Shown: positions 16,099 to 20,276, counted from the first letter of the stretch. The stretch is 47,713 nt of DNA from a virus (IMGVR_UViG_2541047774_000010); one strand, 5' to 3'. Program-made: numbers and translations. The notes: generated from the letters alone by a model not told the origin.

Positions 16099-16311
16099 TC
16101 ATGAAAGGTAAACATTGGCAGCTGAAGGGCCACGCAGACCATTTATCCGGCAAAATTCCACGCGTAATCCGGTGGTAATTTCTTCTGCATCGCGGAGATT
16201 GAGCGCTGAAACATGAAGCTGGACATCGATACGACCATCGGATGGGGTGATAAGACCCTTGCCGCTTTTGCCGTCAAAGGTTTTGACAATTCCTGTCATT
16301 TTACGGGACAA
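16099..16311 (-). CDS. cspF: Cold shock protein paralog, CspF/CspH-like
   Basis: 70 aa [27 protein letters not shown]...[19 protein letters not shown], matching CspF/CspH as recalled. Confidence 0.88.
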
Positions 16312-16611
16312 AAAAATTCCTTAATACTGATAACTGGGCGCACTATACACACGTTCCTGAAGAAAGCTATAGTTTTTTGATGGGGTTGAAGATGGCTGGA
16401 TGTCTAAAATAAACATTGCTTCATATGTTCAACTATGCGTTAATGATTGCGTCGGTTTGAAGAACAGACGATATACGAAGTAGTTTACTAAAGCAGTTCT
16501 CATTTCAGGTGTTATTCACTTATTCCTTCTTTGAGTCTCTCCAATTAAGTACGAAGTCGTTTCTGTTATACAAGCCATTTATGCCGAAAGGCTCAAGTTA
16601 AGGAATGTAGA

Positions 16612-16827
16612 ATGTCAAATAAAATGACTGGTTTAGTAAAATGGTTTAACGCTGATAAAGGTTTTGGCTTTATTTCTCCTGTTGATGGTAGTAAAGATGT
16701 GTTTGTGCATTTTTCTGCGATTCAGAATGATAATTTTCGAACCTTATTTGAAGGTCAAAAGGTTACCTTCTCTGTAGAGAGTGGTGCTAAAGGTCCTGCA
16801 GCAGCAAATGTCATAATTACTGATTAA
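16612..16827 (+). CDS. cspB: Cold shock protein CspB-like
   Basis: 71 aa [38 protein letters not shown], a CspA-family protein matching CspB as recalled. Confidence 0.88.
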
Positions 16828-17108
16828 AATTCATAGTTTGTCTGTATACGATAACGAAGAAGGCTGATGCCTGAGTGGAGATACAGACAGAGTGGTGAAT
16901 ATTGGATCTCTTTAATAAATAGTAAGGAGGTCCAATACATGAAACAATGGCCAGCATATTTGGCAATAACTTAATCAGGAAAAGTATGCTAACCATTGTG
17001 GTGAAGTGCAGGTTTGCTGCATGAATAGTTTTACAGCAGAAGCTAACTGCTGGCATAGCAAAACAAAGTGCGTAAGTGGATGACTCCCACAAAAAGTACC
17101 ACAATATT

Positions 17109-17134
17109 AAACCCGCTCAGGCGGGTTTTTTATT
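17109..17134. terminator. Intrinsic terminator, possibly bidirectional
   Basis: ACCCGC-TCAG-GCGGGT hairpin followed by TTTTTTATT on the plus strand; lies between cspB and the convergent zinc-ribbon gene. Confidence 0.6.
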
Positions 17135-17190
17135 ATCTGCTTTAAATATGTTATTAAAATATAAAAAATACTTGTTACGAATAAAATCAA

Positions 17191-17361
17191 TCAAGCTACA
17201 GCTTTAAGATTTGTCTGGAATACTTTGTTGCAATGAGGGCAGATCAAAAGGGCACCTTTTTGTACTCTTGAAAAACTGTGTTCTGACTCTTGGGTGCAGT
17301 TTGGGCAGGAACATTTAACGAGATAATTACGGCGTGATTTTGAGTCTTTACGTTCTGACAT
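17191..17361 (-). CDS. Small zinc-ribbon protein
   Basis: 56 aa from MSERKDSK with RBS AGGAAAA; two CxxC pairs (CSCPNC...CPHC). Confidence 0.45.
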   Translation of the reverse strand: MSERKDSKSRRNYLVKCSCPNCTQESEHSFSRVQKGALLICPHCNKVFQTNLKAVA

Positions 17362-17579
17362 AGGCTTTTCCTGTATAAATGGCCGTATACAGTACACTAA
17401 ATATGAAAACATATCTCGTATTATTATTTAATATATGATTTTCTTTTAAAATAATTACCCACATTTTTAATGTGTCTGTTTTTTAGCGCCGTTGAGAACA
17501 ACGTTTGCTATAAAAACTAACCCATAGACTCCGATCTTTTCAAACATATTGCACCATCTGTGTACATCGGGGTGAGGAT

Positions 17580-17795
17580 ATGAAATCAATGGATAAGTTA
17601 ACAACAGGTATCGCCTATGGCACATCGGCTGGTAATGCTGGTTTCTGGGCATTGCAGTTACTCGATAAAGTAACTCCGTCACAGTGGGCTGCAATCGGTG
17701 TGCTGGGTAGTCTGGTTTTTGGCCTGCTGACGTATCTGACAAACCTTTATTTCAAGATTAAAGAAGACAGGCGTAAGGTTGCGAGAAGAGAGTAA
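17580..17795 (+). CDS. Holin, EssD/EssQ-like
   Basis: 71 aa [26 protein letters not shown]...[33 protein letters not shown] matches the E. coli prophage holin EssD/EssQ as recalled; RBS GGGGTGAGGA. Confidence 0.88.
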
Positions 17796-17799
17796 TCCA

Positions 17800-18351
17800 A
17801 TGACACAAGACTATGAACTGGTTGTGAAAGGAGTCCGCAATTTTGAGAATAAAGTGGCGGTAACTGTAGCCTTACGGGACAAAAAACGCTTTGACGGTGA
17901 AATTTTTGACCTGGACATCTCGCTGGACCGTGTTGAAGGTGCCGCGCTGGAGTTTTATGAGGCAGCAGCCAGAATGAGAATCAGACAGGTATTCCTGGAT
18001 GTTGCTGCCGGGTTATGTGTAGGGGATGAGCAGTCGCCGGAAAAGCGCCCCATAATTTTAGAGGCGCAGAATGTGTGGATAACCTACAAAGGAAAGCTAC
18101 CGGGAAGAATTACTGGTTCTCTGAAGACGCCACCGACGGCATTGCGGTCAGAAAAAGATGATATTGAATCGCCCATTGAAAAACTGGAGGGCAGCGTCGC
18201 TGATCTGAATAAAAAATTGTCGGTGCTGATCCCTTCTGAAGATGAAAAAAAACGCCGCGATGAGCAGTTTGCGGCGTTTTACGATTATTGCATTGAAGTT
18301 ACTCGCAGGAATTTTGTGAAGATTTTTGAGGAGGGTAAATCTCTTCAGTAA
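17800..18351 (+). CDS. ydfR: YdfR-like protein (N-terminal similarity), with extended C-terminus
   Basis: Start MTQDYELVVKGVRNFENKV matches YdfR as recalled; this ORF is longer (183 aa) than the recalled K-12 YdfR (about 103 aa). Confidence 0.65.
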   Translation: MTQDYELVVKGVRNFENKVAVTVALRDKKRFDGEIFDLDISLDRVEGAALEFYEAAARMRIRQVFLDVAAGLCVGDEQSPEKRPIILEAQNVWITYKGKLPGRITGSLKTPPTALRSEKDDIESPIEKLEGSVADLNKKLSVLIPSEDEKKRRDEQFAAFYDYCIEVTRRNFVKIFEEGKSLQ

Positions 18352-18559
18352 GCTTAATGGCGGACGCTGCAATTAATTCAGGAAGGTCCGCAAGGTCATC
18401 TGTCAGTGGATATGATGAAAAATCGGCGGCAGTTCTGTTAAGAAGCGCTTTAACTAATTCCTTTTCCTTCTCCGGCAACAAGTTGATTAGAGCTACGACT
18501 GCTTGCCTGAGTGCGATTAAATCAGCAAAAGTTTGTTTTGGTAGATTTGTGTAATCCAT
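18299..18559 (-). CDS. Hypothetical protein encoded antisense within the lysis cassette
   Basis: 86 aa from MDYTNLPKQTF with strong RBS GAGGTGA 5 nt upstream; acidic, protein-like composition; overlaps the 3' end of the ydfR-like ORF on the opposite strand. Confidence 0.35.
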   Translation of the reverse strand: MDYTNLPKQTFADLIALRQAVVALINLLPEKEKELVKALLNRTAADFSSYPLTDDLADLPELIAASAIKLTEEIYPPQKSSQNSCE

Positions 18560-18672
18560 AGTCACCTCTGTGTTTATCAGATTGACATCCTCCTCCCGCC
18601 AGTGCCCATCACTGGTGAGGTAAGATTTAACATATCCGGGGATTTGAAGCCGATAAATCCTGATAAATATCC

Positions 18673-19206
18673 ATGAACGTAAAAATCAGATACAGCCTGT
18701 CGGCTGCTGTTCTGGCACTGATTGCCGCCAGTGCTCCTGCCCCTGACATTCTCGATCAGTTTCTGGATGAAAAAGAGGGGAATCACACCACTGCATACCG
18801 CGATGGCTCCGGCATATGGACCATCTGTCGGGGAGCAACGATGGTGGACGGTAAACCTGTTATTCCGGGAATGAAACTGTCGAAGGAAAAATGCGCCCAG
18901 GTTAACGCCATTGAGCGGGATAAGGCGCTGGCATGGGTGGAGCGCAATATAAAAGTTCCACTGACCGAGCCACAGAAAGCCGGTATCGCGTCATTCTGTC
19001 CCTATAACATTGGCCCTGGTAAGTGTTTTCCGTCGACGTTTTATAAGCGGCTTAATGCCGGTGATCGTAAAGGCGCATGCGAGGCGATTCGCTGGTGGAT
19101 AAAGGACGGTGGACGTGATTGCCGCATTCGTTCAAATAATTGTTACGGTCAGGTTATTCGTCGTGACCAGGAGAGTGCATTAACCTGCTGGGGGATAGAA
19201 CATTGA
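18673..19206 (+). CDS. SAR endolysin (T4-type lysozyme, glycoside hydrolase family 24)
   Basis: 177 aa; N-terminal signal-anchor ([15 protein letters not shown]); catalytic E-x8-D-x5-T ([20 protein letters not shown]); matches RrrD/RrrQ-type lysozyme as recalled. Confidence 0.92.
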
Positions 19207-19700
19207 ATCAGATATTCACGGTGATTTTGCTCGTGTTGGTAGGATTTGTCGTAGGTAATGTCTGGAGCGACAGAGGATGGCAAAAAAAATGGGCGGAGCG
19301 TGATGCTGCCGAATTATCTCAAGAGGTAAATGTCCAATTTGCTGCTCGAATAATTGAACAGGGGCGAACTATATCCCGTGATGAGGCTGTTAAAGATGCA
19401 CAACAGAAAGCCGCTGAAATTTCTGCCAGGGCTGCTGATCTGTCTGATAGTGTTAACCAGCTGCGTGCCGAAGCAACAAAATATGCCATACGCCTTGACG
19501 CAGCGCAGCATACCGCAAATCTTGCCGCTGCCGTCAGAGGCAAAACAACCAAAGCCGCCGAAGGAATGCTCACCAACATGCTCGGAGATATTGCAGCAGA
19601 AGCTCAGCTTTATGCTGAAATTGCTGACAAACGCTACATCGCAGGAGTGACTTGTCAACGGATTTATGAATCTTTAAGAGATAAAAAATATCAGATGTAG
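19203..19700 (+). CDS. Rz-like inner-membrane spanin
   Basis: 165 aa; N-terminal transmembrane helix ([18 protein letters not shown]) then a long predicted coiled coil; position directly after the endolysin. Confidence 0.7.
19381..19650 (+). CDS. Rz1-like outer-membrane lipoprotein spanin embedded in the +1 frame of Rz
   Basis: [28 protein letters not shown] signal peptide with lipobox (LTSC); Pro-rich mature region; entirely within the Rz gene. Confidence 0.55.
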
Positions 19701-20060
19701 ATTAATATTAAATCGGATTATTTTTAGCGCTGAATGTGAAATTTAAATAAAAAGGACTCTTCCATGAGTCAAAATCCTTGAAATCTTAAGGGTAAGATAA
19801 AAGGTCATTAGACAGAATGACACGTTTTATTAATAAATAAAGCTATTGTTTCATTCGTGTGTTTTTCTTTACAAAAGTAATCCTTGCTATGGTTGGTTAA
19901 TCATGCGTTAATGGTGTTCTGGTTTGTTACAAAATTATCTGAAGCAGTCATTGTTATAATTTTATTATTTGTACCTCTTGAGATCTCCTTGTTGGTTTTT
20001 CTCTCTGATATTTTTTTTCGGACCATTCTGCCCAAGGGCTAACTTCTTCAAAAGGTAATA

Positions 20061-20276
20061 ATGATGTCTAACAAAATGACTGGTTTAGTGAAATGGTTTA
20101 ACCCTGAAAAAGGTTTTGGTTTCATCACGCCGAAAGATGGTAGCAAAGATGTGTTTGTCCATTTCTCAGTTATTCAGAGCAACGATTTCAAAACGTTAAC
20201 TGAGAATCAGGAAGTCGAATTTGGTATTGAGAACGGACCTAAAGGCCCCGCGGCTGTTCATGTAGTGGCACTTTGA
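20061..20276 (+). CDS. cspI: Cold shock protein CspI-like
   Basis: [70 protein letters not shown] matches CspI as recalled. Confidence 0.88.

Follow-up and report, generated by a model that had tools for sequence, protein, structure and literature searches.

We use the term moron as defined by Juhala and Hendrix, the criterion being cargo that is present, absent or differently filled between genes in related phages. The classical lambdoid examples are stx and the porin gene nmpC between Q and S, and bor between Rz and cos. Cold-shock genes in a lambdoid late region are already known, being annotated both in the Qin prophage of K-12 and in sequenced plaque-forming phages. The gene order of Qin is ydfT-ynfS-cspF-cspB-ynfU-essQ-ydfR-rrrQ-rzpQ/rzoQ-cspI-ynfQ-ynfR-ynfN-gnsB and, further on, stfQ-tfaQ-pinQ-ydfK.

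The window (the whole 47,713 nt stretch of DNA analysed, IMGVR_UViG_2541047774_000010) is an E. coli lambdoid prophage that begins with yjjG, followed by an integrase gene. The first-pass annotation of this DNA had likened the arrangement to that of K-12 Qin, and correctly: on alignment, the window showed the same gene order and orientation as Qin at 91–98% identity (98% from Q to the holin, 91–95% from Q to gnsB, and 91–97% at the stf'-tfa-pin-ydfK end). Its islands of cold-shock genes use both of the classical moron slots (Table 1).

Of 5426 complete E. coli genomes, 1385 have at least 80% of the module, which spans 5.1 kb. The sequenced phages 2H10, PhiR63_1, HannyBb, PhiR42_1 and Tritos carry the module as well. 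All of it is found at 99.6% identity in Escherichia phage 2H10 (Glaedevirus gv2H10, NC_049950), whose three genes annotated 'cold shock protein' have the same positions. In Tritos, a prophage of strain LF82, the module is 93.6% identical over 79% of the query; this phage forms plaques, and cspB and cspI are transcribed in its lysogen (PMC9928086). Functional versions, namely 2H10, Tritos and the PhiR phages, have already been isolated and sequenced.

Two islands of cold-shock genes

The left-hand island, between Q and the holin gene, contains ynfS, cspF, cspB and ynfU, whilst the right-hand island contains cspI, ynfQ, ynfN and gnsB. The proposed divergent cspF/cspB pair between Q and the holin, and the proposed location of cspI 3' of Rz/Rz1, were both borne out by ORF positions and matches to the CSD profile. 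Proteins of ~70 aa matching this profile (Pfam PF00313) above the curated threshold were assigned to the CspA family; CspF, CspB and CspI scored 77.8, 109.3 and 105.9 bits, respectively, against a cut-off of 27. The aromatic motifs RNP1 (KGFGFI) and RNP2 (VFVHF) are intact in CspB and CspI. These aromatic residues are not present in CspF, where the motifs read SGKGLI and VQLHV, and on its sequence CspF belongs to the divergent CspF/CspH subgroup. The ynfQ gene has an ATT start codon, 11 nt 3' of the cspI stop.

A long AT-rich leader had been claimed for each csp gene. This holds for cspB and cspI, for which matches to the Rfam cspA thermoregulator (RF01766, gathering score 78) begin 161 and 147 nt 5' of the ATG, in leaders of 37 and 33% GC. 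It does not hold for cspF, which gave no Rfam match even at E<=1 and is without a cspA-type leader; only 139 nt separate its start codon from the cspB transcript start. The starts of the two Rfam matches agree with the K-12 leaders of cspB and cspI, placed at 160 and 145 nt, and CspB and CspI are among the cold-induced proteins of K-12 (PMC6719143).

A three-way alignment of the regions upstream of cspB, cspI and the chromosomal gene cspG identified a common promoter block, ATGCGTTAAT. We found 11 terminator-like sites, compared with 4.5 +/- 2.2 in shuffled sequences, including the terminator between cspB and the holin gene and that ending the right-hand island. The generic promoter scan was uninformative: a simple sigma-70 consensus search returned 13 promoter-like sites versus 15.5 in shuffles, the named csp promoters were not among them, and the candidate PR' fell below threshold. 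Independent transcription is suggested by the predicted terminators and by the conserved cspA-type promoter block and leader starts, which lie at published distances. Judged by its sequence, the G+C-rich hairpin following PR' probably terminates transcription on both strands, ending the short PR' transcript in the manner of tR' on one and the cspF/ynfS unit on the other.

The base composition of both islands deviates from that of the neighbouring phage genes, with G+C contents of 37.4 and 35.5% in the islands, 47.0% in the lysis genes and 54.5% in the morphogenesis genes. The extent of the right-hand slot depends on a cos position taken from the ends of the linear 2H10 record, in which nt 46288 pairs with window position 21525 and nt 1 with 21526.

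Table 1. Features of the late region and prophage end, with window coordinates
Feature	Position	Strand	Evidence
IS4 insertion, 13-bp target duplication CTCCCAACTGGAG	13428-14853	-	Sequence; alignment
Q, late-gene antiterminator, ydfT/quuQ type	14931-15683	+	Pfam Antiterm PF03589, E=1.6e-53; ydfT in identical prophage L001
Candidate late promoter PR' (TTGCAT, 17 nt spacer, TAAAAT), inferred only	15715-15743	+	Read from sequence; conserved in K-12 Qin
G+C-rich hairpin with T-runs	15789-15812		Terminator scan; sequence
ynfS-like small ORF, 29 aa	15955-16044	-	Annotated in L001 and K-12; translation
cspF	16099-16311	-	Pfam CSD, E=5.6e-22; NCBIfam CspF, 160 bits (cut-off 111)
Predicted cspB promoter (TTGCTT, 17 nt spacer, GTTAAT)	16416-16444	+	Invariant block, three-way alignment
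cspB mRNA with cspA-type thermoregulator, 161-nt leader	16451-16890	+	Rfam RF01766, 156.5 bits, E=9e-42
cspB, 71 aa	16612-16827	+	Pfam CSD, E=8.4e-32; translation
Strong intrinsic terminator between cspB and holin	17109-17128	+	Scan: 8-bp stem, 5 G-C pairs, tail TTTATTATCT; conserved in K-12
ynfU, small zinc-binding protein	17191-17361	-	Pfam YnfU, 4.7e-31; NCBIfam zinc_YnfU_fam
Holin, essQ, P21 S type	17580-17795	+	Pfam Phage_holin_2_1, 7.3e-34
YdfR-family protein (DUF1327), long form, 183 aa	17800-18351	+	Pfam DUF1327; phrog_2091, end-to-end match
Reverse-strand ORF within lysis cassette, hypothetical in L001	18299-18565	-	phrog_2572, 1.3e-53
Endolysin (lysozyme), rrrQ	18673-19206	+	Pfam Phage_lysozyme, 2.6e-24
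Spanin Rz, rzpQ	19203-19700	+	Pfam DUF2514, 1.9e-38; K-12 annotation
Rz1/rzoQ, embedded in Rz	19396-19650		Lipobox LTSC in translation
Predicted cspI promoter (TTGCTA, 17 nt spacer, GTTAAT)	19884-19912	+	Sequence comparison
cspI mRNA with cspA-type thermoregulator, leader ~147 nt	19917-20322	+	Rfam RF01766, 116.8 bits, E=3.5e-30
cspI, 70 aa	20064-20276 (alternative start 20061)	+	Pfam CSD, E=9.4e-31; annotated cspI
ynfQ, YmcF-family cold shock small protein	20287-20475	+	RefSeq annotation; 68% identity to K-12 YmcF
ynfN, 76 aa, predicted protein	20548-20778	+	Annotation; phrog_3425
gnsB, GnsA/GnsB family	20951-21124	+	Annotation; phrog_2301; 63% identity to GnsA
Intrinsic terminator ending right-hand island	21187-21208	+	Terminator scan
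Position matching 2H10 record ends, taken as cos	21525-21526		Alignment to 2H10
IS3 insertion, 3-bp target duplication AAT	21751-23007	-	Between cos and small terminase gene
ydfK, 77 aa	47480-47713 (last bases of window)	-	ORF; 97% identity to K-12 ydfK

Cargo for the lysogen or parts of the lysis machinery

We propose, with a probability of roughly 0.8, that the csp genes are self-transcribed morons that give lysogenic conversion, and not lysis machinery. Two AT-rich islands of host-type cold-shock genes would fill both classical variable-cargo slots of the lambdoid late region: that between Q/PR' and the holin gene (occupied by stx in Stx phages) and that between Rz and cos (occupied by bor in lambda-like phages). 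Both cspB and cspI appear to keep a cspA-type promoter, a downstream terminator and a 5' leader of ~150–160 nt that would serve as RNA thermosensor, and by virtue of these signals would be transcribed from the repressed prophage. Cold shock and long-term stationary phase would each raise their expression, and CspB and CspI would enlarge the lysogen's pool of CspA-family RNA chaperones, a form of lysogenic conversion for stress fitness. Since cspB and cspI, unlike cspF and ynfU, are read in the direction of the late operon, the Q-antiterminated late transcript would also include both genes as passive passengers in the lytic cycle.

This proposal is based on the gene identities, leaders, terminators, composition, slot variability and identity with Qin and phages observed here. 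Lysogen expression and the fitness effect are taken from papers on close homologues, and the same probably applies to the IS-bearing copy in the window. In the Tritos lysogen, CspI, CspB and YnfN were transcribed 93-, 59- and 27-fold above the prophage background (PMC9928086). In K-12, cspB, cspI, cspF, ynfN and ydfK were up-regulated in long-term stationary phase, where loss of cspB or cspI caused a competitive defect and loss of cspF had no phenotype (PMC7406224). The cargo explanation is weakest for cspF, because it combines the lack of a recognisable cold-shock leader with the lack of a phenotype on loss. The published data on homologues in Tritos and K-12 point to self-expressed cargo of benefit to the host. 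Lysogenic conversion, as raised by the first-pass annotation, is thus a sensible reading with published support, and the idea that the csp genes are silent and dispensable is contradicted by the same expression and fitness data (PMC9928086, PMC7406224).

The csp genes could instead be decaying passengers, functionless for phage and host and kept by linkage alone. The loss of aromatic RNA-binding residues from CspF and the absence of a long-term stationary-phase phenotype on its loss (PMC7406224) are consistent with this, as is the varying content of the right-hand island, in which ynfN or gnsB is missing at some loci. However, all ORFs of the module are intact and 92–100% identical across Escherichia species and sequenced phages, the thermoregulator leaders of cspB and cspI are retained, lysogen expression is strong (PMC9928086), and cspB and cspI measurably affect fitness (PMC7406224). 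We consider neutral carriage very unlikely, the published data on expression and competition having largely refuted it already.

Variability of the slots supports the classification of both islands as morons. The same Q, holin and lysozyme backbones were found with other cargo or none. Phage mEp460 has the same Q, with hypothetical genes and a methyltransferase gene but no csp gene between Q and S; mEp460_ev081 has the cspI island only; Stx2 phage 86 has stx2AB before the same holin type and bor after Rz; and many phages match the query in the holin-lysozyme part only. In phage PHB10, the cspF/cspB pair adjoins the integrase instead.

It is possible, although improbable, that the benefit falls to the phage, with CspB and CspI made from the late transcript acting as RNA chaperones or antiterminators that sustain late expression and lysis in the cold, and perhaps modulating Q antitermination. 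At low temperature, the lytic cycle of lambda proceeds poorly. CspA-family proteins are reportedly transcription antiterminators, and in vitro interference with antitermination by lambda Q has been reported for CspE. The position of cspB and cspI inside the late operon, co-oriented and downstream of Q and the candidate PR', is consistent with such a role, as are the intact RNP1 and RNP2 of nucleic-acid-melting Csps in both proteins and the retention of the module in plaque-forming phages. Against this, phages whose Q, or whose holin and lysozyme, are close relatives of those in the window are without one or both islands, which argues that this lysis or late-control system does not need them. 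Furthermore, CspA, CspG and CspE are already supplied by every E. coli host, and the csp genes appear to keep complete host-type promoters and leaders, with homologues that are expressed in a repressed prophage (PMC9928086).

Temperature-responsive lysis, the other possibility raised initially, is unsupported, given the phages with a closely related holin and lysozyme that are without one or both islands, and the terminator between cspB and the holin gene. Another reading is that a cspB promoter induced by cold, SulA or stationary phase, together with Csp antitermination, drives read-through of this terminator into the holin, endolysin and spanin genes, so that cold or stress would lead to lysis of the cell with no need for the prophage to be induced. 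The cspB gene does lie 753 nt upstream of the holin gene on the same strand, but the strong intrinsic terminator and the convergent ynfU gene intervene, and both are conserved in K-12. We know of no report of lysis on a shift to 15 °C in K-12, the standard cold-shock model, in which the arrangement is 98% identical. In a study of SulA-dependent cell lysis in K-12, five genes of the cold-shock family, cspF and cspI among them, were induced, cspB most strongly, and a cspB::kan insertion lowered lysis; a polar effect of the insertion on the downstream lysis genes was not considered, and cspB overexpression alone gave no lysis (PMC8123628). Read-through into the lysis cassette is hardly credible, and self-transcribed cargo for the lysogen remains our preferred explanation.

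Relation to Qin and state of this prophage copy

The suggestion that the window may represent the ancestral functional state of Qin holds only in part. Qin lies between ydfJ and rspB, whereas the window element lies next to yjjG. The early region of Qin consists of dicA/dicB/relBE, with which the early and immunity region of the window has nothing in common; nothing in Qin leftwards of and including ydfU, with dicA, dicB, relBE and intQ, was matched in the window. The packaging and head module of the window, with a DUF1441 small terminase and a ClpP-capsid fusion, differs from the Qin remnant nohA, which is of the lambda Nu1 type. K-12 nohA-ynfO has no match in the window and 97% identity in phage 2H10, which is a better match to Qin than the window is and matches both sides of the Qin deletion. 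On the basis of integration site, immunity region and head module, and the better fit of 2H10 to the Qin remnant, we do not regard this element as simply Qin before decay; the IS4 and IS3 insertions also speak against an ancestral functional state.

Qin is without head and tail genes and without the segment 18006-18662, both of which are present in the window. This segment, which has no K-12 match, overlaps the reverse-strand ORF of the lysis cassette, absent from K-12 Qin. The YdfR-family protein equals 2H10 gp52 in length.

The morphogenesis module had been described as apparently complete, and we found a full set of head and tail genes, with no internal stop in any of the 32 named genes translated. 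The region matches the same prophage in strain Ec1119 at 99.5% identity. Nevertheless, the window's own copy may be nonfunctional, because IS4, lying 77 bp upstream of Q, truncates the DUF968/ydfU gene at its 3' end, and IS3 lies 225 bp right of cos. The closest genomes do not have this IS4 insertion. At the window end, ydfK had been noted as a cold-shock-associated gene; the ORF is there, and the product of its K-12 homologue is named 'cold shock protein YdfK'. The end of the prophage, where it sits, forms a third AT-rich island (35% GC over 47001-47500).

Comparison with phage 2H10, the chromosomal locus and classical morons

Phage 2H10 and the window are alike in the early-right genes, in J/lom/stf/tfa/pin/ydfK and in the integrase. 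They differ in the packaging and head genes, which are lambda-type in 2H10 and encode the DUF1441 small terminase, a 700-aa large terminase and the ClpP-capsid fusion in the window, and 2H10 is free of IS elements.

Joined to each other, the two phage islands would be collinear with the cspH-cspG-ymcF-ymcE-gnsA locus of the E. coli core genome. At the protein level, identity is 77% for CspH/CspF, 68% for YmcF/YnfQ and 63% for GnsA/GnsB. In cspG, the resemblance is to cspB over the leader and the first ~80 nt, and to cspI over the remainder and the downstream sequence. In contrast to the phage islands, the chromosomal locus has no ynfU or lysis cassette between its halves and no flanking phage genes, YmcE is unrelated to YnfN, and nucleotide identity is only ~75%.

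Relative to Q, the P21-type holin, YdfR, lysozyme and Rz, the slots are placed alike in the window and in phages with classical morons. As in classical morons, the base composition of the window islands deviates, and the islands probably have their own expression signals and benefit the lysogen. The window cargo differs in consisting of host-type stress-response RNA chaperones, not toxins or outer-membrane proteins, and in its control through a predicted RNA thermosensor leader.

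Cold-shock genes within the late region

The three cold-shock genes that the first-pass annotation had placed amongst the lysis genes, and the ydfK gene at the end of the window, are real and were accurately described, as judged from the ORF list and Pfam. The cold-shock domain (CSD) matches of cspF, cspB and cspI had E-values of 1e-22 to 1e-32, and three matches of this strength inside 4.2 kb rule out a chance pattern. All three are interspersed among the genes of a standard lambdoid late region. CspF carries SGKGLI and VQLHV in place of KGFGFI and VFVHF; the aromatic RNP1 and RNP2 residues are absent, and the protein scores above the cut-off of the NCBIfam CspF model.

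Features of the late region and insertion sequences of the window copy
Feature	Coordinates	Strand	Remarks
IS4	13428-14853	-	442-aa transposase; 13-bp target duplication CTCCCAACTGGAG
Antiterminator Q	14931-15683
Terminator-like hairpin	15789-15812		after candidate late promoter PR'
cspF	16099-16311	-	ORF list and Pfam CSD
cspB	16612-16827	+	ORF list and Pfam CSD
Terminator-like hairpin	17109-17128		between cspB and holin
P21-type holin	17580-17795
YdfR/DUF1327 protein			in lysis region, listed between holin and lysozyme
Lysozyme	18673-19206
Rz	19203-19700		Rz1 lipoprotein embedded at 19396-19650
cspI	20064-20276	+	ORF list and Pfam CSD
Terminator-like hairpin	21187-21208		after gnsB
IS3	21751-23007		3-bp target duplication AAT; between cos and small terminase gene
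ydfK			final 234 bases of window

Each csp gene had also been credited with a long AT-rich leader. This held for cspB and cspI, which are preceded by matches to the Rfam cspA thermoregulator model (gathering score 78) at 16451-16890 (156.5 bits) and 19917-20322 (116.8 bits), respectively, but not for cspF, for which the model gave no match. The two matches start 161 nt 5' of the cspB start codon and 147 nt 5' of the cspI start codon, in agreement with the leaders of 160 and 145 nt quoted for the K-12 genes (PMC6719143). Directly 5' of both matches lies a conserved block, ATGCGTTAAT, which also precedes chromosomal cspG and is compatible with a predicted promoter of the form TTGCTn, 17-nt spacer, GTTAAT. 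No further structured RNAs were found by Rfam (E<=1) between 15000 and 22000, apart from two sub-threshold leader-peptide look-alikes that coincide with terminator hairpins. A generic sigma-70 scan returned 13 sites against 15.5 expected, and was set aside as evidence. Terminator-like hairpins were enriched in the region (11 versus 4.5 +/- 2.2 in shuffles), and those listed in the table bracket transcription units.

The prophage end past the pin invertase (47001-47713) forms a third AT-rich island, of 35% GC. This island holds ydfK, so that cold-shock-annotated cargo is found at three separate places in the prophage.

Relation to K-12 Qin and to sequenced phages

The arrangement had been likened to that of the cryptic K-12 prophage Qin, and alignment bore this out. 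The K-12 annotation gives the same order as the window, ydfT-ynfS-cspF-cspB-ynfU-essQ-ydfR-rrrQ-rzpQ/rzoQ-cspI-ynfQ-ynfR-ynfN-gnsB, with 98% identity from Q to the holin and 91-95% over the entire Q-to-gnsB stretch, except for 18006-18662. The stf'-tfa-pin-ydfK end is likewise common to both (91-97% identity). Of 5426 complete E. coli genomes, 1385 contain at least 80% of the 5.1-kb module. Amongst sequenced phages, 2H10 (ICTV species Glaedevirus gv2H10) carries the module at full length and 99.6% identity, with three annotated 'cold shock protein' genes, followed by PhiR63_1 (98.8%), HannyBb (96.6%), PhiR42_1 (94.5%) and Tritos (93.6%).

Segment 18006-18662 of the lysis cassette has no counterpart in Qin. 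It encodes a C-terminal extension of YdfR (183 versus 103 aa) and holds an 88-aa reverse-strand ORF (18299-18565, phrog_2572, a family without annotated function). The layout of this segment is identical in 2H10 and similar in Stx2 phage 86. NCBIfam offered no family for YdfR, YnfQ, YnfN, GnsB, YdfK or the reverse-strand ORF; PHROGs matched all of these but YnfQ, in each case to a family without annotated function.

The proposal that the window shows the ancestral functional state of Qin stood in part. The module and the ydfK end are shared, and the window has intact morphogenesis genes: no internal stop occurs in any of the 32 named genes that were translated, and the same prophage in strain Ec1119 shows 99.5% identity over the morphogenesis region. 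In contrast to Qin, the window prophage adjoins yjjG, and both its integrase and its immunity region are its own, with no match in Qin. We located yjjG at 15-692 and a tyrosine integrase at 1078-2313; the integration site differs from that of K-12 Qin. Packaging and head type differ too, the window having a DUF1441 small terminase, a 700-aa large terminase and a ClpP-capsid fusion, whereas the Qin remnant nohA is of another type. The K-12 nohA-ynfO segment has a counterpart of 97% identity in phage 2H10 and none in the window (L002 6840-7919 compared with L003 384-1463, two comparison records), and 2H10 matches Qin on either side of the Qin deletion. Because of these matches, K-12 Qin resembles in its late half a 2H10-type genome from which approximately 21.6 kb of head and tail genes, between Nu1/nohA and stf, would have been lost.

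The window copy carries two simple IS insertions. IS4, which is absent from the closest genomes, has cut off the end of the DUF968/ydfU gene within its final ~17 codons. It lies 77 bp upstream of the Q start codon and may be polar on Q, and hence on all late genes. IS3 sits 225 bp to the right of 21525/21526, a position that matches the 2H10 genome ends and was taken as cos. It is common to the window and strain N51, and other close genomes lack it.

The chromosomal cspH-cspG locus and the history of the islands

The K-12 core locus cspH-cspG-ymcF-ymcE-gnsA (L004, 4964-6241) is collinear with 16099-16827 plus 20064-21124 of the window, minus ynfU and the lysis cassette. The stretch from cspH through the intergenic region and cspG leader to the first ~80-115 nt of cspG is 76% identical to cspF-cspB, whilst cspG, over its full coding sequence, and the greater part of ymcF are 74% identical to cspI-ynfQ, and gnsA and gnsB share 73%. 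Similarity to cspI is maintained beyond approximately nt 100 of cspG, where that to cspB drops to background. Sites that discriminate cspB from cspI change from mostly cspB-like to mostly cspI-like near nt 70 of the coding sequence, placing the switch near nt 70-100, in a zone blurred by ~25% divergence. YmcE and YnfN are unrelated.

This collinearity, together with the switch inside cspG, raises the possibility that a single older 'cold island' of the cspH-cspG-ymcF-...-gnsA type supplied both csp islands as its two halves, between which ynfU and the lysis cassette now lie, an origin that we consider unlikely. One possible direction is that the core cspH-cspG-ymcF-gnsA locus is the fossil of a Qin-like late region, in which holin, endolysin and spanin would have been lost when cspB and cspI recombined as direct repeats; the core cold-shock genes would then be domesticated phage cargo. 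The blurring of the cspG switch weighs against this direction, as does the survey of complete E. coli genomes: a synthetic junction query, in which the 5' part of cspF-cspB was fused to the 3' part of cspI through gnsB, was never covered to 80% or more in any of the 5426. A recent cspB x cspI recombination that removed the lysis cassette was accordingly rejected; no recent deletion derivative was found, nor any indication that the process is ongoing. A search for phage islands nearer to chromosomal cspH/cspG was equally fruitless, the best of 50,697 phage records reaching ~76%.

Alternatively, a phage may have captured a host cold island, which was later split around the lysis genes. When one genome per species was scanned with YnfQ/YmcF, csp-ynfQ pairs at the 11-nt spacing occurred in approximately 35 species of Enterobacteriaceae, and lambdoid late genes lay within 8 kb in only 9 of the 80 loci returned (L012-L086). 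These results suggest that small cold-shock genes recur together in a chromosomal neighbourhood, a possible source of phage cargo. Because the unit is widespread on Enterobacteriaceae chromosomes, mostly without phage genes nearby, the comparison favours a host origin of the phage csp cargo over a phage fossil in the core locus.

In Raoultella, some loci (L045, L060 and L062 at 6735-8500) have two ydfK-like genes beside ynfQ-ynfN and no phage genes. Three further contigs, labelled as a Veillonella parvula MAG (L009), a Mucilaginibacter MAG (L050) and a Chryseobacterium isolate (L069), carry E. coli-like or Scandinavium-like csp loci, with protein identity of up to 100%, and probably reflect binning or assembly contamination.

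Our literature search found nothing relevant that described cspG-gnsA as a prophage relic. The island history is offered as a lead only, and the evolutionary link between the phage islands and core cspH-cspG-gnsA may merit phylogenetic study.

Expression, lysis and the cargo slots

Two functions had been raised for the csp genes, lysogenic conversion and temperature-responsive lysis. The first is supported by published data on homologues. In an uninduced lysogen of E. coli LF82, CspI, CspB and YnfN of the plaque-forming prophage Tritos were transcribed at 93, 59 and 27 times the prophage background, respectively, and were counted by the authors amongst its morons (PMC9928086). In K-12, cspB, cspI, cspF, ynfN and ydfK are up-regulated together in long-term stationary phase, and cspB or cspI mutants, but not a cspF mutant, are outcompeted by the wild type (PMC7406224). 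The same two studies contradict the view that the genes are silent and dispensable. The Qin csp genes are also classed as horizontal acquisitions in a review of grounded prophages (PMC6379469).

We found no support for temperature-responsive lysis. A weak hint of stress-coupled lysis via cspB and the adjacent lysis genes comes from K-12, where cspB::kan lowered SulA-dependent lysis, polarity on the adjacent Qin lysis genes being unconsidered in that study (PMC8123628). However, a strong terminator and a convergent gene lie between cspB and the holin, and related phages with this lysis cassette dispense with the csp islands. The literature search returned no relevant report of cold-induced essQ or rzpQ.

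CspA-family proteins are able to antiterminate, and both canonical csp genes, cspB and cspI, point the same way as the late operon. On this argument, phage-borne Csps might benefit the phage itself in the cold, which we regard as a minority explanation. At low temperature the Csps of such phages, of which 2H10 and Tritos have been isolated, may serve the phage as well or the lysogen alone.

Existing annotation or published work already covers the genes, their order, the cold-shock leaders, the prophage location and expression from a prophage that is active but repressed. The observation is textbook K-12 genome content, with annotated isolated phages and expression and fitness data on record, and its value as a discovery is small.

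The two csp islands have GC contents of 37.4 and 35.5%, lower than those of the lysis genes (47.0%) and morphogenesis genes (54.5%), and are compositional islands in the two classical lambdoid cargo slots. The content of these slots varies between phages. In mEp460, the same Q is followed by two hypothetical genes and a DNA methyltransferase, with no csp gene, whereas mEp460_ev081 has the cspI-ynfN-gnsB island only; in many further phages the match was limited to the holin-lysozyme part of the query. Phage PHB10 differs in that a cspF/cspB-like divergent pair adjoins the integrase, outside the lysis region. Given the deviating GC content, the variability of the slots and the bracketing terminators, the predicted anatomy of the csp islands is that of morons, self-contained transcription units of which the lysis module is independent. 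In Stx2 phage 86, stx2AB and an esterase precede a holin, YdfR and lysozyme of the same kind, and bor follows Rz. The region studied here clearly illustrates how a lambdoid phage carries a small stress regulon (cspB, cspI, ynfQ/YmcF, gnsB and ydfK) in the Shiga toxin and bor slots of pathogens.
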